From Naegleria gruberi (Eukaryota), in assembly GCA_000004985.1 (NCBI GenBank), contig GG738898.1: 64,000 nt of DNA; one strand, written 5' to 3'. Positions within the stretch are counted from its first letter, which is position 1, and each line of letters begins with the position of its first letter. Positions 4,791-48,427 of the stretch are shown piece by piece. The position numbers and the translations under genes were made by a program. The notes under the pieces are model-generated. The model made no database searches. It was not told the DNA's origin and saw only the letters and a list, made by a program, of their open reading frames with translations.

Positions 4791-4919
4791 TATTTCCAAC
4801 TTGTCCTTAGTGTAAAGTGGTCATTTAAATGGAAAAATAAAATATCATAAATTAAAATGGATTGGGTACCAGTAATTACAACAACCAGTGAGAATGAATA
4901 CCATGATTTAAAAGGAAAC

Positions 4920-4991
4920 GGGGACCAGTGGGAATCGAACCCACGGCCTCTCGCACCCAAAGCGAGAATCATACCACTAGACCATGGTCCC
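4920..4991 (-). tRNA. tRNA-Pro(UGG): tRNA-Pro (anticodon UGG), no intron
   Basis: Reverse complement is GGGACCATGGTCTAGTGGTATGATTCTCGCTTTGGGTGCGAGAGGCCGTGGGTTCGATTCCCACTGGTCCC plus discriminator C. It has a 7-bp acceptor stem and D, anticodon and T arms. The anticodon loop is TT-TGG-GT. It is very close to canonical eukaryotic cytosolic tRNA-Pro. Confidence 0.85.
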
Positions 4992-5117
4992 TAACATTAA
5001 ATGTCCATTTTATTTAAAATTCCAGCCTGTAACCGCCAAGTAGTTGAATAAGGTTTTGGACTAGGTCATTATTATCCACGTTTTAAGATATTTGCTTTTT
5101 AAATATTGTAACTACGG

Positions 5118-7305
5118 TTAATAATCAAAGCTCTCAATTAAAATATTCATGGCTGGAACTTTCAACTCTTTCAATATTTCTATCAAACTTTCATTGAATG
5201 GAGTCGGTCCACAAACGTAAACAACCCTTTCCTCAACATCTTTCACCAATTCACTCAACAATTTCATGTCCAATCTTTGGCACTTCACATCTTCCATTGA
5301 AACATCTTGCATTCTTGTAACACAATAATTCAATTGATTGATAATTCCCTTTTCCTTGTACTGATCCAACTCTGACTTGAATGGAATGTCATTTACAAAC
5401 TTTTCACTATGAATCCATTGAATATGAGGTGCATCTTTGATATCGAGAATGGAGTCTTGAATACTGTGAAAAGTTCCACGAATCATGGACATGAATGGAG
5501 TGATTCCGATTCCGCCACTCAGGAAGAGAACTTTCCATTGTAGATTGGAAGAAGTTTCTTGAGATTTCTTTAAGGCGACATGATAGGAAGTTTGAAGTGT
5601 AAAGTTTCCTTCAATTCCCATTAGAAATAGCTTTGTTTCACCTATTTTTGCATCTTGATGAAGCCATGAACTAGTTTTACCCAAACTAATCTTCTTGACC
5701 GATATTTCAAAGTTATTCGTTTCATTGGAAGGTCCACTTTCAATATTCCCATCTTTGGAAGGAGGAATAAGATACATGGCAGACGAAACTGTCCAACTTC
5801 TCATATAAGGATGATCTAAAGAGAGTGTAAATGTAGCATATTGTCCAGGAAGATAGGTAATATTTCTATGACCTTCCAAAATCTCAAATCCAAATGAGGA
5901 AATTTCATCAGTTATTTTTTTCACACTCACCAACTTGGCATGAACAATTTCTCCCAAATGTTTCTCCTTCATTAGTGGGGCTACATTGAAAACTTCCTTC
6001 CTGGATGGATTTAAACTTTCCAAATCATTGGAATCATTCAAGAGTGGATTGTGTGAAGACATGGATATGAAATCCCATTTGAAAGGACATTGATGATTAG
6101 AAACTTTCCACTTTTCAACCTTGAAAACAACTGTACGATCACTACCATCGAATCCGCTTCCTGGTTCTTCCCTCCATGTTACTTGAATATTGCCAGTCAA
6201 TTGGAGAATATGTCCATGATCAAAGTCAATAAAGAGTAAACCAGCAGAGGAGCAATTCTCTGTGTTTCCTAATGTTTGAAACATACCCTTTCCAACATAA
6301 TCACCCCATACTAGAGTGTCTCTGTCAATGATTCTGATAAAGCCAGGTCTTCCTCCTCGATGAGAACCTTAAATAGTTTGAATTGGTAAAGATTCGAATA
6401 GATGAAATAAACTTACAATCAGCTCCTTTTTCTGGGTGTACAGTAGAAATCATCATCGTATCTGCTCCCAGTATGAACTTGATAACATTTTCTGGCATTC
6501 CACCAGTTGAGAAATTATTATAATCTCTAGTTGACTTGCTCCATTCCTCAAATCCAATAATCGATTGAACAGCCCTCTGTTGAATATACTTTGGACAAGT
6601 AGAAAACGCTTCCCTAACCCTAATAGAAAACCCATCTCCACTCAATGGCTCTATAATCTCACCATTCGTTCTGTATCTCTTCCTCGAACATAAATCAAGG
6701 AAATTAATACTCACCAATGAGCCAAGTTGTGAACAAGTTTTCCACATTGGATCATTTTCATTGGGAGATTTGAGAATTTTGATGATTGTACCGTCCTTAC
6801 TAATCTTAATAAGTTGATTGAAATGGGACAAGTCGACCCGTTCGTGATGTTTCGAATTGAGATCTTGAGCACTTGAAACATTGCATGGATCATATAAGGA
6901 ACAGATTAATCGAGAGGTTTGTAATTCTTCTACGGAGGTGGAAACTTGAGCATTTAAGGGAATCCATGGAGAGTCCTTCTCTTGCTCATAGGAAGTCAAC
7001 TCATCTGATTCCAAAGTTGACTGTTTCGAATACATTTCATGTTGTTTAGGAGTTGCCCAAATCGATGAGCACCAACACTCATTAGTTTCCTTATCAAACG
7101 AAGCCACAAACACAACAAATCGTTCCATTAGAAATGAATGAAATTCCTCTGGGACATGATTCGTAATTTTTCTGCTACCCAAATGATTGGCAAACTCGAG
7201 AGTGTGAGCTTTTCTTTGGAAATCCAATTCTCCTTCGTGAAAAACTGATTTTTCTAAAGGTTTCGGTTGAGAAGTGGGTTGGTTAGATGTTGGTTGAGTG
7301 GACAT
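5118..7305 (-). CDS. Two-exon oxidoreductase: N-terminal pyridoxamine-5'-phosphate-oxidase-like FMN-binding split-barrel fused to a ferredoxin-NADP reductase-like FAD/NAD(P)-binding domain
   Basis: Exon 1 about 7305..6417, exon 2 about 6367..5118. A 49-nt intron (GTAAGT…TTAAG, about 6368..6416) joins track ORFs 6325..7305 and 5118..6284 in frame. The spliced junction reads …HPEKGAD|CSHRGGRPGFIRIIDRDTLVWGDYVGKGMFQTLGNTEN…. The C-terminal domain has the FNR NAD-binding motif LFLSGGIGITPFMSMI. Ends in TAA. Confidence 0.6.
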
Positions 7306-7620
7306 TTTTTTTACTTCATGATTTCGAATAGAAATTAAAAAGGATTATTTTAAAAATTGTAAATAGCCATGTTTGGTGAGTAGCTAAAATGAAAAGATTT
7401 AAATTGATGATGAAAATCAACCAGTTGATTGTAATCTTCAATGAAATTCAATTTTATTAAAATACTTTACAATGCGAATTTTTTGTGGAAATTTGTTTTT
7501 CATTTCCAAAAAAATGTACAAAAGTAATCAGCAGCTCGTGGACTGGTTGTCGAATCAGCAGTATTTTCCTTCGTTACTCTTGCATAGTAAGTTTGATCAC
7601 ACTTTCGAATAATATTTAGC

Positions 7621-8291
7621 TTGAATTTATTAGAAATTCGGGAGAGTGGTTGTGATGAAGAAACAATATTAAACACAGATTCACAATTTTTACTTGGAAG
7701 AATGTTTGAAAGTGGATATCTAGTAGAAAAATCCATGAAGAAAGCAAACGAATGGTATTCTAAAGCATTACAATCATTTGTTAAACCTGAAAATGAAAAC
7801 CAACCTCACATTCAGTACTATTTAGGAAATATGTGTTACAAAGGAATCATCTTGAAACAATCATATGAAAGGGCATTTAAATGGTTTCAAAAAGCAGCAA
7901 ATGGAAATCATGGAAAATCAATTTACAATTTAGGATTAATGTACTATTTTGGATTGAGAAATCTTATGAAAATGCAGTTGAATATTTTGAAAAAGCTTGT
8001 AATTTTGGAATGTACACAATGTCAAAGTATTACTTGAGTCACATGTATCAGAAAGGTTTAGGTGTGCCAATTTCGAATGAGAAATCGTTACAATTACTTT
8101 ATGAATCAGCGAGTCATGGGTTTGTGCATTCACAACTTCGTTTAGGACCTCGTTATAAGAATGGAGAGGGCATTGAGCAATCTTTCGAATTCTTTCAAAA
8201 ATCTGCCAATCAAGACCATATACAAGCTCAAACCGAGTCGGGAATAATGTTTTATCATGGACAAGGCGTTTTGAGATTATTGAACCACTAA
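7621..8291 (+). CDS. Sel1-like (SLR/TPR-like) repeat protein, interrupted by a 1-nt frameshift near 7951-7957
   Basis: Repeated Sel1 pattern (…A.EWY.KA…YYLG.MY..G.G…). Track ORFs 7621..8037 and 7881..8291 are consecutive repeats in different frames. Restoring one g in ggattg(g)agaaa gives a continuous …YYFGLEKSYENAVEYFEKA…. This is either a sequencing indel or a pseudogene. Confidence 0.5.
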
Positions 8292-8343
8292 CTGAAGTAA
8301 CTAAACCCAATATGAAAAAATTCAATTTATTGTACAATAAACT

Positions 8344-9564
8344 TTACATCATTGATTCATTCAATTGTTTCATCAGTTCATCCAAATCTTGATTTTCAAC
8401 ATTTACCAATTCCTTCTCATCAACCTTCTTATTGTGATGTTCGTATTGATATTCGAGACCGTGTGATAAATCTTCATGACGATGAGCATGTGAGTGAATG
8501 TCAATATCTTCAACTTCATCAGCAACAATTTCAATACCCCATTCATTTTCTGTGTGAACAATCTTCTTTTCATCAGCTTGTTCCTTATCTTCTTCATCGA
8601 GATCCAAGTCGAGTAAACCTTCTTCCTTCAATTTGGCAATTTCAGTTTGTCTCTTGAGACACATTGGATTGGAACATTGAGGATTTGGACGAACCTTCAT
8701 GGTTGGGAAATAATCATTAATGGCACTATAACCCAAGTAATAGCTAATCTTACCAAATCTCAACAAGTATTTCAATACAGATTGAACCAATAAACCAGCA
8801 GTAATACCCATAGTTGTTGGTAAACTGGCAGCACAAACACCTTCACGTTTAACTTGCTTAACACCACTTGCAACAACCAATGGTGGAGCACATTCATAAC
8901 AAGCAGTGAGACCAGGAACCATGAATTGAATGTGACCACTGACAGCATCTTCACTGACTCCACTTTCCATCCATCTAATATTCAATTCATTACAAGCTCT
9001 ATTAATTGCAACTCTAGCTTCAAAATTATCAACACATGACAATACTAAATCAACCTTTCCATTTGTTAATAAATTTCCAGTATTAATTGTATTCATAAAA
9101 GTATCAAAATTGTCCAAAGAAGTAATATTATATGAACATGTTTCAAAAACAACATCAGGATTAATCTTTGAAAGAGTTTCCTTTGAAGCATCCACCTTTG
9201 TCATACCAACTTGATCCGGAGTGAAGAACAAACGATTCATATTAGCAAGAGAGACAATATCAAAATCGAACAAGATTAATTTACCAATACCACATCTTGT
9301 TAACATTTCGCAAACAACAGCACCAACACCTCCCAATCCAACAACAGCCACAGTAAATTCTCTGATTTTTTCATAATTCTTAACAATACCCATCGATGAG
9401 AGAGCCATCAATCTAGAGTATGGATTATCGTCCTTAACTTCGGAAGAAATGACAGAAATTTTCTCTCGGATCACTTTTTGTTGTTGATTTTGAAGTTGAT
9501 TCTTCAGAGAGGCTACTTCCTCTTCCAATTGTTTGATACGTTCTTCCGATTGTTGTTGACTCAT
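8344..9564 (-). CDS. uba5: UFM1-activating E1-like enzyme (UBA5), 406 aa
   Basis: ThiF/MoeB adenylation domain with [21 protein letters not shown] and catalytic Cys context [27 protein letters not shown]. The UBA5-specific C-terminus is present, including [10 protein letters not shown]. Single exon, ATG at 9564, TAA stop. Confidence 0.8.
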
Positions 9565-9748
9565 TTTTTTAATATTATATTATTATTATTAGATTAAATA
9601 ATTTAATGACGTCATGTTTTTTTGAAAATTGAGAGCTCTGTTTTGTAATGTACAAAGAGGTGAATGTGTGTTGTTTTGAATGAAATGATTTCAAATTGGT
9701 AGTAGACCTATTTCACTCACTGGTGGAGGTTGGAGGTTCAGATGAGAT

Positions 9749-11937
9749 CTATCTATCTGGGAATTCAGGAGAGTAGGTGCCTGTGAAAAGATGAGAATTG
9801 TGGATGGTGTGATCGATAAGTTTTCCATTCTTGTCTACTTGAGAGAATGGACAAATGGTTTCTCCCCTCTCGTTTTCTAATGGTTTTGTTAGTTCCTTAT
9901 TATTGGTAGATGCTTCATTTCGTAGCCAGAATGCTCTGTCAAAAGCTTTCAGCAGCATGTGATCAGTTTGTTCCTGAATGTTTTGTTCAAAGTACATGAT
10001 TCCTCCTTCCTTTTCAATAACATAGACAAACTCGTCCAATAATTTGTGGGATGGGAAGGAAATGTCTTTCTGCTTGACAAGATCTTTCAGTTCCTTACTG
10101 GCATGTTTAGAATTTGTGATTAATTTTCGTTTCTTATCATCGACAAAATAGGTCATTTCACAAACACCGTTTTGTTTCAATCTATCAAGATACTTCTTGA
10201 CAGATCCTGAAACTCTATCAAAGAATCCTTCTGATAATCCCAATTTTGATAAAATATCCATTACAAAATGTTGACAATTTGCCTTTCTATTGTCATATGT
10301 CTTTGTACCATTCCATTCACAAACAACCTCGGATATAATTTTGAATGCATCTGTAATTTCTTTTTGATCTCTAAATGTATGAATATCTGCAACAAAAACA
10401 GCCTTACTACTACTCTTCTTTCTTACTGTGGCAATACTAGAGTCGCAAAACTCAATGTAAAATTCACCGACAATAAGCGCAGAGTGGTACATGCCAAATT
10501 GTTGATCCTTCAAGGCTCCAACAGTACTACCAAGTCTTCTGATAATTCTGTGAGCTGTGGAAGTACTCATTTCAGTAATAACCAGCTTTACCTTTAATCC
10601 CAATTTGGATGGATGGACTGGTCTGTCCACTCTATCTGGATTGAAATATTTATATCTGAATCTATCTGGAATGACACAATCTTGGGCTACAAGTTCGTGT
10701 AATTTTGGAGCTATTGGAGATCTTAAATTTTGAATTTTCTTCAAGCAATAGTTTCTTCTATCAATTTCTACTGGAGTCAGTTTCTTGTCAGGGAATGGTG
10801 CACATCTCTTTGGTTTTTTCTTTTTTCTCTTATCATCCTCTGGTACAGAAGTACTTGATGGAACTGATTTAAATTCTGTTGCTCTTGAAGCAAAGTACCC
10901 AGATGATTGAGGTTGATATTGTGGAATGTAAGATCCATAGCTAATCTTTGAATCATAATTCAGAGAAGTAGACAACTTGTCCAGATCTGTATAGAAACTT
11001 GTTGAAAGGGCTGGTTCTTCAGCAATCTCTGGAACATAAAAGCTTATTTTAGGTCCATTCATTTCCATAGCGGTACTCGAGCTAGATGGTGATGTGCTCA
11101 TGAGTGCTCTATAGTTAACATCTTCAATGTTATTCTGAATGGATTTATAATATTTGGCCTCTTCATCTTCTTCACCAACAGCGTATAAAAGATCCATGGT
11201 CAACTCCACATCATCTCTTGATGGTCTATCTTCCATGTTAATATTAAGTGATCCAGCACTGGTTGTGCTCTGAGAGTTTGACATATTTGGGGTAGATGGA
11301 TTTACAGAGGATGGAACTGAAGAAAGAAGGGAGCTTTGATTACTTTTTGTGTTATTATTACCATCAATATCAATGCTGATCGATGGTTTAGAAAAGTCTA
11401 TTACTGATGAAGAGTCACTTGGTGTTGATGAAACAGAGGACGACTCTAAAGTTTCCAATCGCTTGTTATTCGAAGGTGTCAGAATATATGGATTTTTAAC
11501 AGTATTGCCAACCTTTGGTATCTGTTTGATAGAGAGAACAGGTGGTGTCTCCCCTTTTAATTTATCAATTGGTGGTTCTCCGTGTTCCATAACATTATCA
11601 ATCCTGAGCTTATCCACAAATAACATAAAAACATTTGCTTGTCTTTCCTTGATTTTTAAATCATTAACACACTTTTCCAAAGTAAGTACATATAATTGTA
11701 TTCCTCCAAAATCTGATTTCTTTTCGACGGCTATTTATGATGATCAAATTGATTATTAATAAAATTGTTTTTTAGTTCATCATATTACTTACCCTTGATG
11801 ACATCGGTATGGATGCAAGAACTTCTCATCCATTGTAGAACCATCTTGTGATTCCATTCACAAATTGGATAGCTCTCCACCGAAGGACTTACACTAGAAC
11901 CTGAAGCCGTCGAATTCTTCTTTACGAAACTCAACAT
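9749..11937 (-). CDS. Two-exon protein with N-terminal SAM domain and C-terminal permuted papain-fold (LRAT / NlpC-P60 / PPPDE-like) domain
   Basis: Exon 1 about 11937..11793 (MLSFVKK…ICEWNHKMVLQWMRSSCIHTDVIK). 62-nt intron GTAAGT…ATAG at about 11731..11792. Exon 2 11730..9749. The SAM-like W…VLQWM…LT…L pattern spans the junction. The C-terminus has a His-box MYHSALIVGEFYIEF and NCQHFV, as in the H…C catalytic arrangement of LRAT/PPPDE. Ends in TAG. Confidence 0.5.
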
Positions 11938-13786: not shown

Positions 13787-16700
13787 CTATCTTTTCTGTT
13801 GCAGTTCGATAAATTTTCGAAGACCTTTAAAGTTGGGAAGTGGCTGAAGTTGGTTGAGGTTTAGCGACCTTAGAATGGAATTGACTTCTGAGAAGTGTAC
13901 ATTTGGAGGGTTGAGTTGAGGTTGGTGATCGAATATGAATGGTTCAATAGTGAGATTTTCACCAAGGTTCAAGTGCAATAAGCATTCATCATTAGGTGTT
14001 GATAGAACCTCAATGAAAGGGAAGATTGAAGAGTGCATAATTCTCTGATGAAGAGAAATCGAAAAAAGGAAAATTCCATTCATGGTGAAGTAAACCTCAC
14101 CTTGCTCTGTCAAACCACATCCAATTGTATCTCCACAATGTGCAATTATTTCCAATTCCTTATAAAGTATTTCCTTTTTATCGGCAGACATTATACAGCC
14201 GAATCCTTCCTGTGCCTGAAATGCATATTTTCTATCAACACAATTATTCTCACTAATGTTTGATCTGGCCATCAGTCCAATAGAAACCTTGGAGGATATC
14301 AATCGATGGATTTGAACTTCATAGTAGAATACAGTTTTCATGGAGGGTTTTCTAATGTTGGCAGATGGATTACCAAATCGCCTAGTTTCTGCAATTTCTG
14401 GTTGGAAAAAGAAGAGAGAATCTTTGGTGGTTAGTGACATTTTGGTAGCTCTAGAAGAAACAAAGTGTAGAGTTCGTTCATTATCCAATACCTTGAGTGG
14501 TGATCCTTGAAGATTTACAAGGTGTGAAAAATCTGCTTTGGTTTCAATAGGTACTGGACTATAGTTTCCAAGGTAGTGGTTGATGAGCTCTTTTTCATTT
14601 CCAAGAGTACTGTTTGGATGGTTATCAAAGTGGAAAACCTTGATATCGTTAGGATTCAAATTGTTACAGAGTAAATGATAAATCAATGTTTGTCTATCAA
14701 CGTAGGAGTAATTTTTCAAAAGGCCGAAAGTTAACAGACCACTACCGGTTGGAATGAGATAGTACATGCTATTTGGAAGTCCACATACATTATTATCTCC
14801 AACTATTGCCCCGAATTTCGTATTTCCAATTGTATGGTAGGTTGTAAACTTTTCAAGACTGAAGAAATCATAGAGGAAATTATTCATTACTCCTAGTACT
14901 CTATCTGCAGCACTCTCATCACCAGTGTCAAGAGCCAAGTTCAGTATCTTGGCAAGTTTTTGCCACACTGGTTTGATGATTGCTCTTCTGTGATGGAAAG
15001 GAATCTCATTGAAAACCTCGACTAGTATTGGCTCGATATTGTAATTTGGAGAAAGTAGAGTGGCATAGCCTGGTTCAATGAGTGAAATGTATGTATAGAT
15101 TCCTCTCAATAATTGAGTCTTTTTCTCTGAAAGTGGATCTGAAGATCTGCCAATTTTGCTTTGATTTCTTTCGAGCCACAAACAATAACCAACACGAGTT
15201 GACTTGTCATATTTGCAAAGGAAGAAGATTATTTTCAAGCAGGAAAGGGTGAAGAAAAATTCTGGACTATGGAAAACCTTGGCATGGATAAAATTCAAAA
15301 TACAAGTTGTGGAATATCTTCCCAATTCGTCAACAAGTAAGGAGGAGGTTTCATTTCTCATTTCTCTGATTATTCTCTTAATGTGTCTCTTATCTGTTTG
15401 ATTGTCATAGTATGTGAGTACTTGAGAAATTATACTCAGTGTGCTCTTGAAAATCTCATCATACATCTCATTCAACTCTACACTTGACTCTGTGTGAGCT
15501 CGATCTGAGAATAATTTTCTGGAAATGTAGAACATCAAAACGGGGAGGACTCTATACTCTGACATTAATTCGCAACATTTCTGCCGTAATTTTTCATTGG
15601 AGAGCAAGTCTTTCATGCCAAGAATGGATTTCTTAACAAAAAGACTGCTTGTGTCAAGTCCACTCAAAAATCCTAACAAGGATTCCGGCTTACTGAGAAT
15701 ATTCAACAATTGAGATGAGTCATTCTCAAAGATGAATCTCCATGTTTGTATGACTGGGTGTTCTAATAGTTCAGCTGCACTTTTTCTTTCCTCCCTAGCA
15801 CACACCATCATTTTCACAATTCTTTTTGATCCAATGTCAAATACATGTTCATGAATAAACTCAAAGTAGTGATTCGAACGCATAAATAACCAAAAGTCAA
15901 TATTATACCGTCTTGCTCTTTGATCGATTAATTGTTGGAAATCCTTCACAGTTAAAGTAGCCGAAACTTGCATAAAGATAATTCCTAGACTGTAAACATC
16001 AACTTTGTAATCATATTCAGCTCCAGGTTTAACCTCAGGAGCAACATAGGCCCGAGTACCACAAATAGTTGATGTAGAGTTTTGATGAACAAGTTGCTTA
16101 GCAAGACCAAAATCAATAATTTTCAAAGTAATCTTTCTAATTTCTTCCTCAAAATTATTCTTTAAATTATCAGAATCATATTGCACAATAATGTTTTGCG
16201 GTTTCAAATCTCTGTGAATAACCTTATTTTGATGGAGATAATTCATGACTTCGAGTAATTTGATGAACCATGAGAATCTGACATCCATGGTCAAAGTTTT
16301 GAGACCCTTACTTTCCTTTGTAATTTCATTCAAATCAGAAATAAACTGATCCAATATTTTACCACTACAATATTCCATAAGAATGCAGTAGTATCTCTTG
16401 TTAATGTCCATGAATGAGTCATAATATTTCACAATATTTGGATGATCCAGCATCATCATTAATTTCACTTCCTTTTCCTGATAGTCATTGATTGTGATTC
16501 TTTTTAGAGCAAAAATTCTATTGGTTCCAACTTGGACAACTCTGAATACAGTTCCATAAGATCCTTCTCCTAACTGCTCAAGTAGTTGGAAGGATTTTGT
16601 TTTCTTGNNNNNNNNNNNNNNNNNNNNNNNNNNNNNNNNNNNNNNNNNNNNNNNNNNATCGAAAGAGTTTGCGTTTCCGTTCATTACAAAATTCTTTTGG

Positions 16701-17941
16701 AAATTTGATGATGAATGAGATTTCTTTGAGGAGTGAGTTTTGCTTGTTTCAGAAGGTTTCGTCTCAATTTCTGATAGGCCCATGAGATCATACTCATCAT
16801 CATTGTCTGCAGTACTTCTTCTACCATCTTGAGGTTCGGATTTACCAGATCCCTCATCACTCACAAACAGAACATCACTATTGAAATCATGATTAACTTG
16901 TTGCTGAGGATTGGATGTAGTAGAAGGTTTAGATGCATGTAAAAATGCATTACTTTTAAAAGGTGAAGATCCAAAATCAATATCCATCTCATCAAATTCA
17001 TCCTGTGTTATTGGTGTGATCATGAAATTAGGTGTCGTGTTTTGAACTGGTTGTTGGATTGGTGAATGTATTGTATTAATGTTGAACGATCCAAAATTCT
17101 GATCAATATCATACCTCTCATCATCGTCGTCATCAATGAGATCGAACGATTCGAGGGCATCGTTTGGATTTGGCTTTTTAGGCACTGAGCTATAAGCAGG
17201 AGTTACACTAAAAGCAGGTGAAATTACAGAGATAGGTTGAGAATTTTTTGAAGACATGAATTCATCATCATCCTCATCGTCTTCCTCAATAACGAAAGAA
17301 TCGACTAGTTTCGTATTGGCAAGATTACTTCTTATTGTTCCTGTTGTCGAATATGAATTTGATGGAGATGGAACATAACTATTCGAAGGAGATTGAACAT
17401 ACAATGGAGATGGAGTAAACGTGAGAGGCACTTGTGGATAGTTATGATGATTGTGAAATTGACTCGGAAAATATGCTTGTTGTTGGTTTGTATTTACATT
17501 TCTCGTATTATTATGTTGTTGATGATTAAGAAAGAGAGGTGGAGATGATGATGTAGTATTTGTTTGTGGAAAACCATTTTGATTCGGCTGTTGTTGATTA
17601 GAATTTGGATGGAACACAAAATTATTATTCATCATGAATGGTGGCAATGTTTGACCGCCATTCATCATTTGATTATTGCCAATCAATGGAGAACCCATCA
17701 TTATTCTCGTGTTCGGTGAAGAAGCAGGTGAAGAAGTATTCGAATCTGCAGAGTTTCGTCCATTCATCGAAGGAGACGATGAAGGAGAAACTAGAATAGC
17801 CTTCCTCCTCTGTCTTCCACCTCCTACCTTTGGACTTGATGAATTAGGTGGTGATATCGAAGAAGCTCCTCCTCCACTTGATGATGACGAAGGCTGTATG
17901 AAATTCCTATTCGGTGATGTTGGATATCCATTCATGATCAT
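13787..17941 (-). CDS. NEK-like Ser/Thr protein kinase, about 1384 aa, with low-complexity N-terminus and large C-terminal region
   Basis: ATG at 17941 (MIMNGYP…). Kinase core LGEGSYGTVF…ALKRI…HPNIVKYYDSF…HRDLKPQNII…DFGLAK…GTRAYVAPE. The N-terminus is rich in Ser/Asn/Gln/Pro. A 50-nt N gap (16608..16657) lies inside the CDS just upstream of the kinase domain. Ends in TAG. Confidence 0.7.
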   Translation of the reverse strand: MIMNGYPTSPNRNFIQPSSSSSGGGASSISPPNSSSPKVGGGRQRRKAILVSPSSSPSMNGRNSADSNTSSPASSPNTRIMMGSPLIGNNQMMNGGQTLPPFMMNNNFVFHPNSNQQQPNQNGFPQTNTTSSSPPLFLNHQQHNNTRNVNTNQQQAYFPSQFHNHHNYPQVPLTFTPSPLYVQSPSNSYVPSPSNSYSTTGTIRSNLANTKLVDSFVIEEDDEDDDEFMSSKNSQPISVISPAFSVTPAYSSVPKKPNPNDALESFDLIDDDDDERYDIDQNFGSFNINTIHSPIQQPVQNTTPNFMITPITQDEFDEMDIDFGSSPFKSNAFLHASKPSTTSNPQQQVNHDFNSDVLFVSDEGSGKSEPQDGRRSTADNDDEYDLMGLSEIETKPSETSKTHSSKKSHSSSNFQKNFVMNGNANSFDXXXXXXXXXXXXXXXXXKKTKSFQLLEQLGEGSYGTVFRVVQVGTNRIFALKRITINDYQEKEVKLMMMLDHPNIVKYYDSFMDINKRYYCILMEYCSGKILDQFISDLNEITKESKGLKTLTMDVRFSWFIKLLEVMNYLHQNKVIHRDLKPQNIIVQYDSDNLKNNFEEEIRKITLKIIDFGLAKQLVHQNSTSTICGTRAYVAPEVKPGAEYDYKVDVYSLGIIFMQVSATLTVKDFQQLIDQRARRYNIDFWLFMRSNHYFEFIHEHVFDIGSKRIVKMMVCAREERKSAAELLEHPVIQTWRFIFENDSSQLLNILSKPESLLGFLSGLDTSSLFVKKSILGMKDLLSNEKLRQKCCELMSEYRVLPVLMFYISRKLFSDRAHTESSVELNEMYDEIFKSTLSIISQVLTYYDNQTDKRHIKRIIREMRNETSSLLVDELGRYSTTCILNFIHAKVFHSPEFFFTLSCLKIIFFLCKYDKSTRVGYCLWLERNQSKIGRSSDPLSEKKTQLLRGIYTYISLIEPGYATLLSPNYNIEPILVEVFNEIPFHHRRAIIKPVWQKLAKILNLALDTGDESAADRVLGVMNNFLYDFFSLEKFTTYHTIGNTKFGAIVGDNNVCGLPNSMYYLIPTGSGLLTFGLLKNYSYVDRQTLIYHLLCNNLNPNDIKVFHFDNHPNSTLGNEKELINHYLGNYSPVPIETKADFSHLVNLQGSPLKVLDNERTLHFVSSRATKMSLTTKDSLFFFQPEIAETRRFGNPSANIRKPSMKTVFYYEVQIHRLISSKVSIGLMARSNISENNCVDRKYAFQAQEGFGCIMSADKKEILYKELEIIAHCGDTIGCGLTEQGEVYFTMNGIFLFSISLHQRIMHSSIFPFIEVLSTPNDECLLHLNLGENLTIEPFIFDHQPQLNPPNVHFSEVNSILRSLNLNQLQPLPNFKGLRKFIELQQKR

Positions 17942-18744: not shown

Positions 18745-20271
18745 TTATTCATCCTTAGCTTCCTTCTTTACGAATGCTTGCTTCTTTTTGTGATGGTTTC
18801 TTCTCTTATTTGGTTGTTTTTGTTCACCTCCTTCTGTTGTGGCTGTAGTGGTAGCAGTGGAAGATGAAGCTGAGCTAGTTGTTGACTCACTCTTTTCTGT
18901 TGAGCTAGATGCTCCCTTTTGTGTTGCAGGAGCCTTAGTATGATGCTTGGATGGTTTCTTTCCATTTGATGTTGATGTTGTTGCTACAGGTGTGGATTTA
19001 TCACCAAGTTGCTTAATATAGTTAAGAATATCTTTAGAGAACTTTCCCCATTCTTTATCTCCAATATCCAATTCCTTTCTCAAGGCTTTTTCGTCTGTGA
19101 GTGATAATCCTCTTTGTTTCATCTTCAAGACAGCATCTTTAACTTGACCCTTTTTGACATCATCAAATTTTTGCCAGTGAACTTCTTCGACATCAGCAGA
19201 CTTGACTTTGTACATGTTACGAGTAACAAGATAACCTTCAGAGTCCAACAAATATAATACATGGCCTTCAATGGCAAAGTGTTCATACTCATACTTGTGT
19301 TTAAGATTGTGTTGCTTTCTATACTCTTCATTCATCTTCAAGCTATCAGCTTGGAGCATCTTGCACAATTTCACACAACTGGCATGGGATTGATATGGAT
19401 AATACTTGATTGGACCAAATTCTTCCATTCCCTTAACTTTCATACATGGCTTGATCTTACCATTGGAGAACCCATAGAATAGTGGCTTCAAATCAACTCC
19501 AAATTCATATTTAACCAAGTGAGGAAGAGTGTTACCACAAACTTCGAATGAAATGCATTGAACACTTGGATTATTTAAAAATTCTTGAATATGAGGACTG
19601 TAGTGTGGATTGGCTGTATCATTGTGAATCTTGAGCAATTCATCTCTCAAACTCAATTCTTCATACTTTCCGATAAATTGATCCAAATGCAATGCAGTTA
19701 AAGTACTCGATAAAAAGTTACCAAAATCAGTGTCTGTCAATGTTGGCATACCCTTGGTCTTACCACTGATATATTCATTACCATCCTTATCATGATATTT
19801 AAACAAGAGAATATTGGTTCCATTCCACTTTTCGGAAATGTAATAAGAATCAATTTTTTCTTCCTCTTCAAACTTTTCAACATAATTATCAAAAGACTTA
19901 TTGTAGGCATATTTAAGCTTTGGTGTGGCATAGATGAATTCTCTCTTATCTGTTGTTTCATCCTTCAATGATTGTCCGTTTACACTGACAACATACAAAC
20001 TACCTCCAATTGGTCCATCACGCTTGCAAATAAATCCAAAGATTGATTGCTTATCCAAAATACTAAAAGAACGAACATCAAACTTTGGAGATTTGCACTT
20101 GAATACATTAAAGCAAACATCCTTGGTCTCGGAATACTCTGGAATAAATCTTTGTTTTTTCAAACCTGTTCCATCTTGTGCTTCATCTTCAGCTGTTTGT
20201 TCTTCCTCTTCTTTTTGTTCTTCAGCCGATGATGATGATGCTGCTAATTGTTGTTGTTCTACTTCAGACAT
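18745..20271 (-). CDS. Rnl2-family ATP-dependent RNA ligase, paralog A (intronless, about 508 aa, acidic/Ser-rich N-terminal extension)
   Basis: Nucleotidyltransferase motifs aligned to T4 Rnl2. Motif I is EKWNGTN (Rnl2 EKIHGTN; Lys is the adenylation site). SGKTKGMPTLTDTDFGNF matches AKRTGPILPAEDFFGY. Motif III ISFEVCGN matches QVFGEFAG. Motif IV IEGHVLYL matches AEGYVLKP. Motif V MYKVKS matches VAIKCKN. The Rnl2-type C-domain signature DKEWGKFSKDILNYIKQ matches PKDFGKVMGLTVQDIL. First ATG (MSEVEQQQ) is near 20271; the track start at 20361 is TTG. My own coordinate count put the stop one base lower than the track. Confidence 0.7.
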   Translation of the reverse strand: MSEVEQQQLAASSSSAEEQKEEEEQTAEDEAQDGTGLKKQRFIPEYSETKDVCFNVFKCKSPKFDVRSFSILDKQSIFGFICKRDGPIGGSLYVVSVNGQSLKDETTDKREFIYATPKLKYAYNKSFDNYVEKFEEEEKIDSYYISEKWNGTNILLFKYHDKDGNEYISGKTKGMPTLTDTDFGNFLSSTLTALHLDQFIGKYEELSLRDELLKIHNDTANPHYSPHIQEFLNNPSVQCISFEVCGNTLPHLVKYEFGVDLKPLFYGFSNGKIKPCMKVKGMEEFGPIKYYPYQSHASCVKLCKMLQADSLKMNEEYRKQHNLKHKYEYEHFAIEGHVLYLLDSEGYLVTRNMYKVKSADVEEVHWQKFDDVKKGQVKDAVLKMKQRGLSLTDEKALRKELDIGDKEWGKFSKDILNYIKQLGDKSTPVATTSTSNGKKPSKHHTKAPATQKGASSSTEKSESTTSSASSSTATTTATTEGGEQKQPNKRRNHHKKKQAFVKKEAKDE

Positions 20272-20547: not shown

Positions 20548-22281
20548 TTATTCTTCATCATTTTCAACTTCGACAATATTTTCATCATCCACAAGTACGT
20601 CCATGACATCTTCAACATCTTCGACCTTTTCTTCAGTAAAGATCATTTGCTTTTCTGCCAAGTTTCTATAGATACCTTGTGGAATCTTAATGAGCTCGCT
20701 GTGAGTGCCCTTTTCTTTCATGACACCCTTAACTAAGACACAGATAACATCTGAATTAATGACAGTTGTCAATCTGTGAGCAATACAAATGGTTGTTCTT
20801 CCCTTCATCAATTCATCCAAAGCAGCTTGAACTAATCTTTCAGATTCAGTATCGAGAGCAGATGTGGCTTCATCCAATAAGAGAATCTTTGGATCTTGCA
20901 AGAGAGCTCTTGCAATGGCAATTCTTTGTTTTTGACCACCAGACAAGGAAACACCCTTTTCACCCAAAATAGTGTCATACTTTTCAGGCAAATCCATAAT
21001 AAAGCTGTGAGCATTAGCTCTCTTGGCAGCATTTTCAACTTGTTCCATGGTGACAACTTTACCAGATTCGACACTATCATTAGGACCTAACAAGGCATAG
21101 GCAATGTTATATTTGATTGTTCCAGCAAATAATACAGGTTCTTGTGAGACAATACCCAAACAATTTCTGTGCAACCACATTGGATCGAGCTCAGCAACAT
21201 CAACTCCATCAATCTTAATTGTACCCTTATTTGGAGTATAGAATTTTTCTAAAAGACCTACAATGGTTGACTTGCCTGAACCTGATGGACCAACCAAAGC
21301 AATTTGTTGACCAGATTTGATATCCAAACTGAAATCAGTCATGACATTAGTATTTGGACGAGATGGGTAAGCGAAATCAACTCCAGTAATTTCAATATCA
21401 CCCTTAACTTGTTCAATCTTCTTACCACCCATGAATGGAATGGCTGGTTCTCNNNNNNNNNNNNNNNNNNNNNNNNNNNNNNNNNNNNNNNNNNNNNNNN
21501 NNGACATTGTATGTGAGAACAGAAAGTAAGTGGTGAGGTACTGACAAGAATGAGAGCCATTCTCCAATTGACAGTCATACTCAAAATGAAACCAACAATA
21601 AATTGAATGATTTCTTGCATGAAAATGAAGAATTCGTTTGTGTAAACATCTTGAATCTTTGGAATATCTTCACTGAGAACTACAGTGACACTACCAATCT
21701 TCTTAATATCGAAGAAACTCATTTCTTGTTTAGCCAATGCTGACATGTAAGCTCTTCTCATTGAAGTTCCCAATCTGGCATTTGACAATTGCAAGAAGAA
21801 ATGTTGCATACCGAAAGCAGCCATACCACAGAATGTAAGAATAGTGAGCTTTTTACAGAGATCGTCAACTGCTTCATAAGCAAGAGCTGTTTTCTGTTCT
21901 GTTGTTAAGGTTGATGATGTGGCATTTGCAAAACTGTCAATCAAATCTCCCAAAATATATTGAACAACTAGAATAAGGTTAATACTATTTGAAATTCGAA
22001 TACTATTACTACATACTAATAGGAATCAAACCATAAGCCATTGCACCAATACATCCAATAGCGATCAGTAAACAATTCCATCCAAAAATTCTCAACATGT
22101 GTAAATGAGAGAAGAAACCAATCTTTGGTTCTCTGTCATCTTTGATTTCATCACCAACTGGTTGTTGTTTCTTTGATTTCTTTGAAGTGTCATCTCTTTT
22201 TCTTCTCCTAATGATACGTTGTCTTCTTGTTGGTTGTTGCACTTCTTCCTTATTTTCAGGATTATCACTTTGAGCTGGCAT
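20548..22281 (-). CDS. ABCB-type (MDR/TAP-like) half-transporter, TMD plus NBD; partial because of an internal 50-nt N gap
   Basis: Exon 1 22281..22017 (MPAQSDNPENKEE…AYGLIPI). 49-nt intron GTATGT…TCTAG at 21968..22016. Exon 2 runs from 21967. The TMD is …GDLIDSF… plus transmembrane helices. The N gap 21453..21502 falls between TMD and NBD. The NBD has Walker A GPSGSGKST, signature LSGGQKQRIAIARAL, Walker B ILLLDEATSALD and H-loop IAHRL. Ends in TAA. Confidence 0.75.
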
Positions 22282-32259: not shown

Positions 32260-33372
32260 ATGTCCAGTCAACTCTTCTCTGAATGGTCAGCCATCGCTGA
32301 CGCCATTGCTGATGTCAGATCCGATCAAACACCAACTAATTGGATGGTTTGTGGTTATGTTGATGGAGCTGTCAAGGTTTTGGAACTTAAAGCCAAAGGT
32401 GAAGGTGGTGTTGATGAAATGAAAGAACAATTCAAAGCAACCAATGCCTATTATGGTTTGGCTCGTATTGAAGAAATGATTGATTCCTCATTGACCATTA
32501 AATTTGCCTTTGTTAAATTTGTTGGTGATGATTTAAAGCCACTCCTTCGTGCTGGTATTACACCTCAAGTTGGTGATATTACTACCAAATTCAAGCCATA
32601 TCACGTTGATATGTACATTACCTCACAAGATGAAATTTCACAACATGTTATTGAAGAATTGGTTGGTAAGGCATCAATGAGTCGTTCCAATGTTATGGAA
32701 AAACACGAAGGTGAAAAGATTCAAAGAGATAATGAAGAAAGACAACGTAGATTGGATTCCCACGTCAAGTTACAACAACAATCATCATCTTCATCAACAG
32801 TTGGTACAAGCTCACCAACTACAAGCACTGCCACATCATCCCCTGTTCGTTCTGCCTCCACTACAACTAGACCAGTGAGTAGCAGTCCAAGACCAAGTAC
32901 TCCTCTCTCAAGTGGTGGAGGTGTTTCTGGTGGTGTTGAATTTGATAATATTGATTCCATTCAAGAAGCAATTAGATCTGTCAGAAATGATGGAGATGCT
33001 ACCAATTGGATGTCTATTACTTATGCACCAAATTCAAAGACTAAACTTACCTTGTTAGGAAAGGGTGAAGGTGGTGTTGATGAAATGAAGGATTCTTGGG
33101 GACCAACTGGTGTCTATTTCGGATTGGTTCGTGTCACTGAAATTATTGATGATTCTGAAACTGTTAAATTCGTCTTTGTTCACATGTTGGGTGATAATGT
33201 TCATCCAATGTTGAAGGGACGTGTCTCCACTCACAAGGGTCAAGTTGAAGCTTTATTACAACCTTATCACACTACCTTTTTCACAACCAATAAGGATGAA
33301 ATCTCACAAGAAGAACTCTCCATCTTGGTTGCTAAGGCATCTCAATCCTACAAGTGGGAAATTAAAAAGTAA
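32260..33372 (+). CDS. Tandem ADF-H (coactosin/Abp1-type actin-depolymerisation-factor homology) domain protein, 370 aa
   Basis: Two copies of the ADF-H pattern (W…CGYVDGAVKVLELKAKGEGGVDEMKE…KFAFVKFVGDD…YHVDMYIT… and WMSITYAPNSKTKLTLLGKGEGGVDEMKD…KFVFVHMLGDN…YHTTFFTT…). They are separated by a Ser/Thr/Pro-rich linker. Single exon, TAA stop. Confidence 0.7.
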   Translation: MSSQLFSEWSAIADAIADVRSDQTPTNWMVCGYVDGAVKVLELKAKGEGGVDEMKEQFKATNAYYGLARIEEMIDSSLTIKFAFVKFVGDDLKPLLRAGITPQVGDITTKFKPYHVDMYITSQDEISQHVIEELVGKASMSRSNVMEKHEGEKIQRDNEERQRRLDSHVKLQQQSSSSSTVGTSSPTTSTATSSPVRSASTTTRPVSSSPRPSTPLSSGGGVSGGVEFDNIDSIQEAIRSVRNDGDATNWMSITYAPNSKTKLTLLGKGEGGVDEMKDSWGPTGVYFGLVRVTEIIDDSETVKFVFVHMLGDNVHPMLKGRVSTHKGQVEALLQPYHTTFFTTNKDEISQEELSILVAKASQSYKWEIKK

Positions 33373-34003: not shown

Positions 34004-36892
34004 ATGAGTGTAAGCTTTCAACATCCTATATCCTCAACAGTTTCGGAATCCAAAGAAGATGAAATCTCTTCGGTTTGGTTTGATTCGAAAAAAGCATCAC
34101 TACCAACATCTAAATCATCGTTTTATTTGGTGCCAGAGGGAGACGATACAACCACTGCACCACCACCAACAAGACAAAGAGCATCAAGCACAGCTAACAT
34201 GTCCTTCATGGACCGAATATTTCATTACTTTAATAGAGAAGACGACAATTTTGAATATAGAAAGAATTCGATGGGAATGAGACTTAAATTTGTTTATTTA
34301 TTCTACTTTTTAATGGTTGGAAGTTTGGGATTTATATATATTGATGGAGTTACTCAAACTAGATTTGTATTTTATGTATTGATAGGAGCAGAGTTCATCC
34401 TTAATTCGCTGGTGATTAGGAATATCGAAAGGAATATACCAATGGCTAAGAAAGAGGCCCTGAATATGTTCATGACACTCTTTTCGTGTGCTAATAGAAT
34501 TGTACTTCAGGTGAGTATTTTTGATTATATTCGAAGAGTTTGATCATGATGGTAATAATTTCAGATTTATTACGGCCCTAATTTTCCTCTTTGGGGAATT
34601 AATACCTACCTTATAGTTATTACATCTAACTCGCTATACTTTAAAAAGTGGTCTACATTATTTAACTGTTTACTCATTTTGGCAACCACTCAATGCTCAC
34701 TATACTTTTCTTATCTGTTGATGGAATTTAGAGCAGATACTGGAGAAATATTTGGAAATGGACTTGAACGAATGGCACCAGTGTTGAATGGATTTGCATG
34801 TTTGAATTCTAGAAAATTCATCAAAATGACTGAAATTTGTGTTATGCAAATTATTGTAACAGCGAGTGGATTTATGTTTTCAGATGTATCTGAAAAGCAG
34901 TATGAAAAGATCTTCCGACAACAAATGGAAATTATGAAAGAAAAGGTTTTGAATGCCTCCAAGACAAAGTTTATTGGTAATCTCTCACATGAAGTGAGAA
35001 ATCCTTTACATGGTGTGGTAAGTAGTCTTTAAGAATTTTACAATAATTGGATTTCATTGATCAATGTATATTTCTAACAGGTTGGATCCATTCAAATATT
35101 AAAACATGAAGCTGAAAGATTAAACAGATTCACAGAATCCTCACTAAGAAAATCAAGCTCATTCAAAATGAGAAGACGAAAGAATTCCCTTCCCAGTTCA
35201 ATTCTCACTTCCTCTGAATGCCTTGAAGATTTATCAATAGACCATAGTATTGATGCGAATACAATAATTGCATCCAATCAAAGCTCTGTAGAATTAATTG
35301 ATGATATTTACAATAACTCCATACTGCTTTTAAACATATTTTCTAGATCATTACAACTAAGCAATTTAGAACTGGGTCAAGTCAAGTTGAATTTCCAAAA
35401 CTTTGACATGCTTGAATTGTTGGAAACAATGACTTCAGTATTTTACACATTGGCTTACGATAAGGGGATTTCTATTCAATCATTTTTTGATTTTGAAAAA
35501 GTGCCATTATTATTTAGAGGAGATCAGGTTAAGATTTCTCAAGTTTTGATGAACATCATTTCAAACAGTATCAAGTACACAAAGAAGGGATATGTTATGA
35601 TTACATGCGATCTTTGCAAAGATACTGATTTTGCCAAGTTTGGTTTAGATGAAAAAGCTCTAAAATCCATTCGAGATAATCTCACACTAGGAAACGAAGA
35701 GGAGGAAGTTGTCTTTCTCAAGATTAATTGTAACGATACTGGTCTTGGAATTTCACTCAATTCAATGAAAACTCTGTTCAAACCCTTCAGGACTATTGAA
35801 AACTCCTCACCAAGCTTTGAACAATACTACTCCAAGTATGAAAACCAAAAGGAAATTGCCAACTCTAGCTTTTCAGATCGTAACGGATTGGGGTTATCTA
35901 TTTGCAAGAGATTTTGTGATGTTATGCACGGGAAAATTGGCGTAGAAAGTGAAGTTGGAAATGGAACAAACATCTCAATCCTTTTACCTCTTGTGAAATG
36001 TTCTGAGAAAATTGAGACAGACTTTTCCAAAAAATCTGTTCATGACCAACTACTAACCTTGAAGAATATGAACATTCCAACTGTTTCCATCTATATTGTC
36101 GACTCGAACATTTGCTTGAGAAGAGTATTGACAGATTATCTTCGTTACATTTTTGAGGATTCTCCAATCTATGAATATGATAACTCTCAAAGTATTGATA
36201 TTAGCAATACTGATGTAAACAAGTTGCTAATTACCATTTACTCTGATGAGATGAATGATTCAATTCAAAAACAATTCGAATCATACCAATCTAGAACAAT
36301 ATTTATTCCTCTTTCTAACAGAGGTTTCTCTAAAAGAACAACTAACCTTAGGTACCTAACAAGACCGCTAAGAATTGGAGATTTGTTGAGTCTTTTAATT
36401 GATAACATGATAATCATGTTAGGAAAATTAGAAAATTCACATTCTTTACACTTTATTGAAAATGAAAAAGTTGAGGCGTTACCTCAAGAAATAACTGAGA
36501 TATCTTCGCCATCCAATAACTCAAATTATGCTCTAGTAGTTGACGACAATGAAATTAACAGGAAAGTTCTTCAAAAAATGTTGAAAATGGTTGGATTTGA
36601 TGAAATTGATGTGGCAGAGAATGGCCTTGTTGCATTTGAAAAGTTTAAGGAGAATCCAACCAAGTACAGAATAATATTTATGGATCTTTTAATGCCATTC
36701 GTATCTGGTAAAGAGTCTTGCGAACTCATTAGAAATCATACTACAAAATCTAACACTCTAATTGTTGCTGTCACAGCCAATATTTGGGAAACTAAGGAAA
36801 TGCTTTGTCAAGCAGGGTTTGATAGTGTGATATACAAGCCAATACTTTTAAATAATTTGCAAAAGGAGCTTACGAATTTGGGGTTACTATAA
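34004..36892 (+). CDS. Membrane-anchored hybrid histidine kinase (multi-TM sensor region, HisKA, HATPase_c, C-terminal receiver), 3 exons
   Basis: Exon 1 34004..34510. Intron 34511..34564 (GTGAGT…TTCAG). Exon 2 34565..35017. Intron 35018..35080 (GTAAGT…CTAACAG). Exon 3 35081..36892. The H-box LSHEVRNPLHGV|VGSIQIL spans intron 2. The N-box is …NIISNSIKYT. G-boxes are DTGLGI and GLGLSI. The receiver has ALVVDDNEINRKVL…IIFMDLLMP…YKP. At least four predicted TM helices lie in exons 1-2. Track start 33992 is TTG; first ATG is 34004. Confidence 0.8.
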
Positions 36893-46640: not shown

Positions 46641-48012
46641 TTACTTTTTCTTCTTCTTTTTGGTTGATTTGGAAGAAGATGAGGAGGTGGTCTTTGCCAT
46701 TGCATTATATTGAACTCTTGCATATTGCATTAGATCGTGTTGGAATCGTGAGAATTCCTTTGGTCCAATATCTAATTCTTCAATCAGAGATTCTTTGGAA
46801 AAGTCCTTTTCTCTTTGAAGAAGTTTCTTGATTGCAATATTGACCAATTCTTTTTGTTTGTCTCCAAATACAGACCAGTGAACCTCTGTTTGGCAGTTAT
46901 TGAACTATGTAAATAGTTATAATTGATTACTAACCTTCAATATCTTTTGGTTTGATTTTGTACAATCTTCTATTGGTGACACCTGGCCAATTTTCCTTAC
47001 TTTCAATAGAAGGATGAATTGAAGACGGTTTGCAACAAATGTATAAAACAGCTCCTTCAGTGATAAAGTGATTATACTCATATCTTACTTCCAGATTGTT
47101 CATCTTTCTATATTCCTCATTCTTAATAAAGTCGGCTACTTGTCTTGATTTACAAATTTCTGTCATCTTTTCAAATCCATTGAATTCATATTGTTGATTG
47201 GATTCAGTATTCATGACTGGTTCAATAAATCCTCCATTTAAATGTTGCATGAATAGTGGTTTGAGATCAATATCAAAATCATACAGGACCAGATGAGGTT
47301 CTTTCTTTCCGCACAATTCACACGATAGAGATTGAATTTCAGGTCTAGTAATAAATTCTTTCAAAATGGCAGGTGGATTCTTTACATCAATTGACTTTCT
47401 GTCACTACTCGATCCATACAATGCCTCTAAGGTCAATGCATAAAAATCACCATATTGAGTATCAGTTAAAGTAGGACTTCCCTTTGTTTTGGCAGAGACA
47501 AATAAATTTCCATTCTTATCATAATATTTAAAGAATAATACATTTGTTCCATTCCACCTATTTTACAATTAATTGAATAATTTAAATTCTTCTTTGAAAA
47601 TTAATCTGTATACCTACTTGTTCGAAAGTACGAAATTTGTCACTTTATCATCAGTTTTAAAACTCTCCTTGTACTTTAATCCAGACAATTGCAATTCTTC
47701 TCCTCCTTCATTATCAGCACTATTTTCTTCCTTCTCTCCATCATGAACATCCTCATCATCATCTCTCTTCTTCTTCTTCTTATCGGAATATGGGTACAAC
47801 AACTTGGGAACACCATAAATCTTTTGTAATTTATCCAATTTTTGATTATTTACATGAGTGATCACAAGAGATCCTCCGAATGGACCATCCTTCTTACAAA
47901 TAAATCCAGAAATTTGTTGTTTCGGATTCAGTGGATCTGTGATATCAAAGGCTTTGATCTGTTTGTTGGACGTATCGAAAAAATCACAAGCTTCCTTCTT
48001 GTAGTTTGTCAT
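46641..48012 (-). CDS. Rnl2-family ATP-dependent RNA ligase, paralog B (3 exons)
   Basis: Exon 1 48012..47618 (MTNYKKEACDFF…VLSN-K). 60-nt intron GTAGGT…AAATAG at 47558..47617. Exon 2 47557..46935, beginning WNGTNVLFFKYYDKNGNLFVSAKTKGSPTLTDTQYGDF (motif I KWNGTN spans the junction). 49-nt intron GTTAGT…AACAG at 46886..46934. Exon 3 46885..46641 (EVHWSVFGDK…LIEELDIGPKEFSRFQHDLMQYAR… then a Ser-rich/poly-Lys tail). It is colinear with paralog A (…CGKKEPHLVLYDFDIDLKPLF…, …YEYNHFITEGAVLYI…, …LYKIKPKD…). TAA stop. Confidence 0.65.
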
Positions 48013-48327: not shown

Positions 48328-48427
48328 NNNNNNNNNNNNNNNNNNNNNNNNNNNNNNNNNNNNNNNNNNNNNNNNNNGCAGCAGATTGGCTGTTTATTGT
48401 TAGTAATTTATGATATCATTAGAATCG

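Follow-up and report, generated by a model that had tools for sequence, protein, structure and literature searches.

Two genes on the minus strand of a stretch of Naegleria gruberi DNA, called paralog A and paralog B below, probably encode active ATP-dependent RNA ligases of a distinct clade, as predicted structure and conserved motifs suggest. The stretch, referred to as the window, comprises 64,000 nt of contig GG738898.1 (assembly GCA_000004985.1) and is nuclear DNA with a G+C content of about 34% and with assembly gaps. Each protein would consist of an N sub-domain, a nucleotidyltransferase (NTase) core and a three-helix C-terminal module (C-module), the last being the clade-specific part. 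The fuller proposal, to which a little less than an even chance is given, is that of a clade combining an adenylyltransferase domain of Rnl3/Rnl1 type with its own three-helix C-module (ELDMGPKEW), repeatedly joined to a kinase and to a metallophosphoesterase or 2H domain in large phages and amoebae.

The coding sequence of A (18745..20271, with the ATG at 20271 and the stop at 18745) is intronless and specifies 508 residues plus the stop; its translation is identical to the deposited N. gruberi protein XP_002672387.1/EFC39643.1 (NAEGRDRAFT_59229). Paralog B lies 26 kb away on the same strand and is composed of three exons. Exon 1 (47618..48012) encodes residues 1–131 and the first 2 bases of the K132 codon, that is, the N sub-domain with a poly-Lys/acidic insert; intron 1 (47558..47617; 60 nt, GT..AG) splits the motif I lysine codon (AA/G); exon 2 (46935..47557) carries NK132WNGTN, AKTKG, CELCG, EGAVLY and YKIK; intron 2 (46886..46934; 49 nt, GT..AG) splits the codon of E339, the first Glu of the conserved EEVHW; and exon 3 (46641..46885) encodes EVHW, the three-helix C-module with ELDIGPKEFSRF, a Ser/Lys tail and the stop. 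Splicing restores the frame, and the product of 420 aa is identical to the deposited XP_002672396.1/EFC39652.1 (NAEGRDRAFT_72583), so that the gene structures given in the initial annotation, intronless for A and with two introns for B, agree with the annotated proteins. Both are deposited just as 'predicted/uncharacterized protein'. In BLASTP, A and B share 38% identity over 406 columns (E 7e-81), which is far above chance and within the earlier estimate of about 35–40%; they are anciently duplicated, diverged paralogs.

Predicted fold and conserved motifs

From the N-terminus, A begins with an acidic, low-complexity extension conserved solely in Naegleria (residues 1–41; 20149..20271), followed by the conserved N sub-domain (residues 42–135; 19867..20148), which consists of a helix and an antiparallel beta-sheet and closes with the invariant T-P-K118-L-x-Y-P. 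The NTase core (residues 136–357; 19201..19866) comes next, and then residues 358–425 (18997..19200), in which the EEVH365W element is followed by the three-helix C-module with the clade signature ELDIGDK406E407W408GKF. The chain ends in a low-complexity tail (residues 426–508 and stop; 18745..18996), Ser/Thr-rich and then Lys/His-rich, which is not conserved and for which nuclear targeting or non-specific RNA binding could be guessed at. The added modules described in the initial annotation, i.e., the acidic N-terminal extension of A and the Lys/acidic insert and Ser/Lys tail of B, are all present.

In the Pfam hmmscan neither A nor B obtained a match, even at E ≤ 10; no model in NCBIfam or PHROGs covers the A/B family, and no ligase was found among Protein Data Bank (PDB) sequences by phmmer or by profile searches with 17-, 24- and 122-sequence alignments. 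The fold was modelled by AlphaFold2 for residues 42–425 of A from a 16-sequence alignment, with a predicted local distance difference test (pLDDT) value of 88 and a predicted template modelling score (pTM) of 0.80, and the NTase fold is present in the predicted structure. When this model was searched with Foldseek, every significant match was an RNA ligase, with E-values of 9.5e-7 for MthRnl, 1e-6 for Trl1-LIG, 1e-4 for T4 Rnl2, 3.5e-4 for REL1 and 6e-4 for NgrRnl. In the structure-prediction comparison of A, the figures given per comparator were, from the highest down, 14.9 and 250 for MthRnl (Rnl3), 14.3 and 261 for Trl1-LIG (Rnl6), 13.5 and 240/246 for the Aquifex and Palaeococcus Rnl3, 13.1 and 236 for T4 Rnl1, 10.1 and 173 for the T4 Rnl2 NTase domain, 10.1 and 163 for NgrRnl, 9.4 and 185 for full-length T4 Rnl2, 8.9 and 173 for REL1, at most 7.5 for DNA ligases and at most 6.5 for capping enzymes.

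The motif strings quoted in the initial annotation were all found, namely EKWNGTN/NKWNGTN, GKTKG...DFGNF, FEVCG/CELCG, EGHVLY/EGAVLY and YKVK/YKIK. In A they are located as follows: motif I EK148WNGTN at 19813-19833, motif Ia GK171TK173G at 19750-19764, motif III FE243VCG at 19534-19548, motif IIIa LKPLF265 at 19471-19491, motif IV E335G336HVLY at 19252-19269 and motif V YK355VK357 at 19201-19212. Motif I has been defined as Kx(D/H/N)G, the Lys being the nucleophile (PMC4797309), and EK148WNGTN of A as well as NK132WNGTN of B fit this definition. Motifs Ia, III, IIIa, IV and V follow collinearly (KTKG, FE(V/L)CG, LKPLF, EGxVLY and YK(V/I)K), in a register shared with Rnl3, Rnl1 and Rnl2 in the hhalign alignments. 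Among 18 group-1 and 24 bacterial group-2 relatives (the two groups are described below), K148, G151, N153, K171, K/R173, E243, G246, E335, G336, K355 and K357 are invariant, as are P117 and E362, while K118, F265 and H365 are nearly so, the motif IIIa Phe being kept in 39 of the 42. All of these conserved residues are retained in A and B. The motifs and the predicted fold thus bear out the earlier placement of both proteins with the covalent nucleotidyltransferases, as proteins of the ATP-dependent RNA ligase type that have a lysine in motif I.

Relatives, domain fusions and proposed reaction

An exhaustive hidden Markov model search returned 879 relatives at E<1e-3, which fall into two groups. 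Group 1 carries the KWNG[TM]N and ELDMGPKEWGKFG signature and includes A, B and their orthologs (those of A in N. fowleri, N. lovaniensis and Willaertia magna, that of B in Willaertia, at 61%), together with an Acanthamoeba castellanii protein, transcripts of marine eukaryotes and many metagenomic and viral proteins. Group 2 is characterized by K[LYW]DGTN and FKCKP..IE.IHW, a length of about 390 aa and a longer, different C-terminal domain; it is chromosomal (GTDB contigs L005-L084) in Binatia, Poribacteria, Verrucomicrobiota, Acidobacteriota, Planctomycetota, Nitrospirales, Patescibacteria and others. PF09414 appears below threshold in 27 of 87 relatives, mostly bacterial group 2 (best value 2e-6), and PF09511 in 4; group 2 thus forms the bridge to Pfam. 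This second group is an uncharacterised bacterial ligase-like family without a curated family model, and the gene neighbourhood of 48 of its members showed nothing conserved save lineage-specific synteny.

Many group-1 proteins are joined to other domains in one chain. A metallophosphoesterase, the ligase and an AAA_33 P-loop kinase are fused in proteins of about 765 aa (P0022, P0024), ligase and kinase in the Acanthamoeba protein, and ligase, kinase and tRNA_lig_CPD in P0038. In P0120, an Ala-rich, eukaryote-like metagenomic protein of 1050 aa, a ligase-like module is followed by a PNK kinase and a 2H-SAK phosphoesterase; its motif I lysine is lost, with ALRRHARPLV where EKWNGTN is expected, and the ligase module of this protein probably has no catalytic activity. 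Among known polynucleotide kinases, the fused kinase matches the stand-alone tRNA-splicing RNA 5'-OH kinase of Mucorales (9DRZ/9D8A) with E 1e-40/1e-35, and also mammalian PNKP (4e-17), the Clostridium CthPnkp kinase (5e-12) and T4 Pnk (6e-5).

Phage homologs were seen solely in IMG/VR contigs, and none was found by tblastn in the INPHARED phage genomes. On one contig (IMGVR_UViG_3300032213_002832, L004, 167 kb), a single open reading frame (ORF) of 763 aa at 7116-9407 encodes a calcineurin-like metallophosphoesterase, the clade ligase and a PNK-type kinase. The arrangement suggests that this phage has a one-chain enzyme for RNA repair, whose domains are ordered differently from those of bacterial Pnkp. 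Neighbours of the ORF are an ATP-dependent DNA ligase (4254-5498), an RNA ligase of Rnl5 layout with a PHA02142 OB domain (5498-6613), NAMPT, an NMNAT/NUDIX protein and ClpP. On another contig (IMGVR_UViG_3300029288_001928, L003, 133 kb), three different RNA-ligase-type genes are packed into 4.5 kb (5530-10055), with just a segE-like ORF between them; they encode a PF09414 ligase with a C-terminal NTase, a stand-alone clade member (7965-8972, no Pfam match) and a PF09414 ligase with an N-terminal NTase. An N6/N4 DNA methylase, a segE-like GIY-YIG protein, NAPRTase and NAD synthase lie in the vicinity.

It is mainly because of these 'Rosetta-stone' fusions that A and B are proposed to seal RNA ends which a 5'-kinase and a 2',3'-phosphoesterase have made ready, following the heal-and-seal logic of T4 Pnkp/Rnl1, bacterial Pnkp/Hen1 and Trl1. 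The reaction would follow the classic ligase pathway of three steps, with no new chemistry expected. Lys148 of A or Lys132 of B would attack ATP to form ligase-AMP, the AMP would be passed to an RNA 5'-phosphate, and the resulting AppRNA would be attacked by a 3'-OH, by which the break would be sealed. That is to say, the two proteins would perform the sealing step of heal-and-seal RNA repair or processing, in which the C-module may act as an RNA-binding specificity element. Since the Naegleria ligases are stand-alone, healing enzymes would act in trans. A repair role, argued by analogy, is proposed with less confidence than the ligase assignment, and confidence in any particular substrate is low.

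Comparison with known RNA ligase families

What defines a family of RNA ligases is the set of modules added to a common nucleotidyltransferase core, and every family to date follows a substrate logic of its own, be it tRNA loops, duplex nicks, circularisation or 2'-phosphate ends. In profile–profile comparison by hhalign, the best link of the family was to a 59-sequence Rnl3 alignment (E 3.8e-4), in an alignment that begins at the TPKL element and extends over motifs I, Ia, III, IIIa and IV; with the same method, Rnl3–Rnl2 (0.003), Rnl3–Rnl1 (0.065) and Rnl2–Rnl1 (0.4) were all weaker. The N sub-domain of A (42–135) was also paired by hhalign with the G-[FY]-P-x-I-x-R element of the Rnl3 N-domain. 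Structure and profile–profile comparison agree, and therefore the adenylyltransferase domain (N sub-domain and NTase core) is, on the model, nearest to Rnl3, followed by Trl1-LIG and T4 Rnl1.

Among the other families, the ligase domain of the fungal/plant tRNA ligase Trl1 (Rnl6; PDB 6N0T/6N0V/6N67) is set apart by several features: neither the PF09511 domain, which gives no match to A or B, nor the distinctive Trl1 C-domain was found. Motif I is quoted as TLKENG for Chaetomium Trl1, as against EKWNGTN here; the Trl1 C-domain has about 80 aa, the C-module about 65 aa, and the C-module does not retrieve Trl1-LIG. Trl1 is organized as LIG-KIN-CPD, whereas A and B stand alone without a kinase or CPD, and their relatives are mixed, with LIG-KIN-CPD and LIG-KIN-2H (P0038, P0120) versus Metallophos-LIG-KIN. 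Moreover, Trl1 requires a 2'-PO4, which the metallophosphoesterase used by other clade relatives would not leave. With T4 Rnl1 (PDB 2C5U, 5TT6, 9DO4), the hhalign E-values are 0.1-0.5; Rnl1 has KEDGSL as motif I, and neither its PF09511 adenylyltransferase domain nor its tRNA-specific helical C-domain was recovered in A and B. NgrRnl (Rnl5; PDB 5COT), the characterised nick-sealing RNA ligase of N. gruberi, has no sequence match to A or B; the Rnl5 arrangement, a clade-specific N-domain that is an unrelated module, a C-terminal NTase and no C-terminal module, is not that of A and B. The same three activities as in bacterial Pnkp/Hen1 (Rnl4), i.e., a PNK-type kinase, a calcineurin-like phosphoesterase and an ATP-dependent ligase, are joined in P0022, P0024 and the 763-aa phage protein.

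In the initial annotation, A and B were regarded as Rnl2-family nick sealers, in which an Rnl2-type C-domain would confer specificity for duplex nicks. The most Rnl2-like stretch is EKWNGTN against EKIHGTN, followed by GKTKGMP...DFGN against AKRTGP...DFFG, and a greedy, non-significant hhalign alignment registers motifs I, Ia, IV and V and pairs GDKEWGKF with GPKDFGKV. The strings DKEWGKFSKDIL and GPKEFSRFQHDL proposed as a C-domain signature are indeed present; K-[DE]-[FW]-G-[KR] is strongly kept in T4-like Rnl2 (K in 113 of 115, D in 112, F in 115, G in 115), and in either family K[DE][FW]GK is found about 50 residues past motif V, where a loop passes into a helix. The shared C-domain did not hold, however, since the profile and structure tests were negative. 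PF18043, the model of the T4 Rnl2 C-domain (T4 residues 244–329), is found on 119 of the 120 T4 Rnl2 homologs listed, but neither it nor PF09414 gives a match to A or B at E ≤ 10, and a PF18043 scan of A, B and 87 relatives gave none. The hhalign comparisons of the family with T4 Rnl2 and with an Rnl2 alignment of 115 sequences gave E-values of 0.05-0.33; those of 0.05-0.13 for the family versus Rnl2 came with a probability of about 1%. The C-module scored 14.2 against the Rnl2 C-domain profile, column-shuffled controls giving 10.5 ± 1.8 with a maximum of 15.6, and its register differs from the one proposed. The Gly of KEWGK occurs in just 9 of 18 clade members, B has KEFSR in its place, the K-E-[WF]-[GS]-[KR] element is missing from the bacterial relatives, and the position aligned with T4 D292 ('KDIL' in A) is variable in the clade. 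Nor is 2HVQ (T4 Rnl2) among the top 60 structural matches of the isolated C-module model, whose fold of about 65 aa is a generic three-helix bundle resembling DNA-binding helix-turn-helix folds in a structure search; structure prediction thus lends no support to the C-domain likeness, an outcome that the annotation itself had named as speaking against it, and K[DE][FW]GK is treated as a short-motif resemblance, not as evidence of a common domain. The alignment along the whole length to T4 Rnl2 fails as well: the motif I Lys is at 148 in A and at 35 in T4 Rnl2, whose NTase is N-terminal, and the conserved N sub-domain of about 95 aa ahead of the core has no counterpart in T4 Rnl2 or kinetoplastid REL1. 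In addition, the phage of the 133-kb contig has a clade ligase beside a separate PF09414 ligase of Rnl2 layout. Rnl2 identity was rejected on the profiles, the N sub-domain and the C-module tests, and such nick sealers are considered highly improbable.

The link to Rnl3 raises the alternative that A and B are divergent members of that family (Pyrococcus abyssi Pab1020, Methanobacterium MthRnl and Palaeococcus PpaRnl; PDB 2VUG, 5D1O, 8UCE), homodimeric and circularising single-stranded RNA. An N-terminal domain of Rnl1-like topology and an NTase core are found, as in Rnl3, but membership fails because the appended domains are not carried by the A/B family: the full-length Rnl3 homologs among the matches listed all have PF09414 and the Pab1020 C-terminal domain PF18330, whereas PF18330 is absent from A, B and 87 relatives and PF09414 is not above threshold in any of them. 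Rnl3 proteins continue for about 130 more residues after motif V, which form dimerisation and C-terminal domains (PMC4797309), while the A/B family ends about 70 residues past motif V, low-complexity tails aside, with the short three-helix C-module in place of both domains. No Rnl3 chain is retrieved by the PDB-sequence profile searches. The A/B clade is often fused to a kinase and a phosphoesterase, whereas fusion of Rnl3 to healing domains is not known, and it occurs in eukaryotes, phages and mesophilic bacteria rather than in thermophilic archaea and Aquificae. Rnl3 membership is accordingly judged unlikely, though less so than an Rnl2 identity. Placed about as low as the latter is the idea that the proteins have a ligase fold but do not join RNA, being DNA-end ligases, regulatory pseudo-enzymes or RNA/protein adenylyltransferases that go no further than step 1 or 2. 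The likeness of the C-module to helix-turn-helix folds would suit it, as would the Tyr in motif IV and the existence of inactive versions, at least one relative (P0120) being without the motif I lysine; against it, the nucleotidyl-transfer residues are all invariant in A, B and 40 relatives, and the fusion partners are RNA end-healing enzymes nearest to tRNA-splicing kinases and CPD.

Several points weigh against the proposal of a distinct clade of sealing RNA ligases itself. The hhalign probability of the Rnl3 link is just 36%, and the distal lysine of motif IV (EGxVxK) is replaced by Tyr in the clade (EGxVLY). A and B lie outside direct matches to any curated model of Pfam, NCBIfam or PHROGs and to any PDB sequence, and they are therefore assigned as ligases from the predicted structure, the conservation of the motifs and transitive homology. 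No kinase, metallophosphoesterase, CPD or 2H partner gene was found in the window by tblastn, the sole P-loop match being the neighbouring ABC-transporter ATPase; the Naegleria pathway is therefore extrapolated from fusions in other organisms. The clade is also fused to two chemically different 3'-end healers, the metallophosphoesterase versus 2H/CPD, which leaves a 2'-phosphate, and therefore the fusions do not fix which end chemistry A and B would accept. As the main caveat, the 'uncatalogued' status holds within Pfam, NCBIfam, PHROGs and the literature searched, the broad 2016 in-silico survey of RNA repair (Burroughs & Aravind), which may mention the clade, excepted; within that scope the literature search found no 'Rnl7' and no description of the clade.

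Genomic surroundings and meaning for RNA repair

The genes listed around A and B are ordinary eukaryotic genes, none of them tied to RNA repair. They are located at 8344-9564(-), 13787-17941(-), 20548-21567(-), 32260-33372(+), 35168-36892(+), 38086-39531(-) and 48756-50864(+), and their products are a ThiF-family E1-like enzyme, two protein kinases, the C-terminus of an ABC-transporter ATPase, which was recognised from its translation, a twinfilin-like protein with two ADF/cofilin domains, a hybrid histidine kinase/response regulator and an aminoacyl-tRNA synthetase of class I. Directly downstream of B, the ORF 45117-46211(-) begins with MSSVSNHEKLVADFYRSLIDEV…ELKKLWGDKI and continues as a long Ser/Pro/Gln-rich low-complexity sequence; we take its start to resemble the N-terminus of the TFIIA large subunit. 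Runs of N mark assembly gaps at 16608-16657, 21453-21502 and 48328-48377 (50 nt each) and at 52456-56688 (4233 nt). The second falls within the ABC-transporter-like ORF that is located a short way upstream of A, the third is about 300 nt upstream of the B start codon, and the long ORFs at 52.4-56.7 kb are artefacts of the fourth.

It has been reported that N. gruberi possesses 13 ATP-dependent RNA ligases, i.e., seven of Rnl1 type, five of Rnl2 type and NgrRnl, plus two RtcB (Unciuleac & Shuman 2015, PMC4408790), and Rnl2 of Diplonema and Naegleria was described in the same year (PMC4599027). In view of these reports, the earlier premise that eukaryotic Rnl2 ligases are scarcely known outside kinetoplastids is dated. 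A and B are absent from the accessions of the former study, and neither is the Naegleria protein of the latter. If the present assignment is true, the number of ATP-dependent RNA ligases in N. gruberi would rise from 13 to at least 15.

Since classic three-step chemistry is expected, the advance, if the enzymes behave as predicted, would be a new family with new architectures and not a new principle. A clade of about 880 detectable relatives, invisible to Pfam, NCBIfam and PHROGs, would enlarge the repertoire of RNA repair enzymes. Through its new one-chain phosphoesterase–ligase–kinase, it would provide a candidate for the sealing of RNA when phages counter the anticodon nucleases of host defence, and RNA-seq library chemistry may likewise gain new enzymes from the clade. 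In Naegleria, and thus also in N. fowleri, a pathogen with an ortholog of A, an already exceptional RNA-ligase inventory would be extended, and one may ask what all these enzymes are needed to repair.

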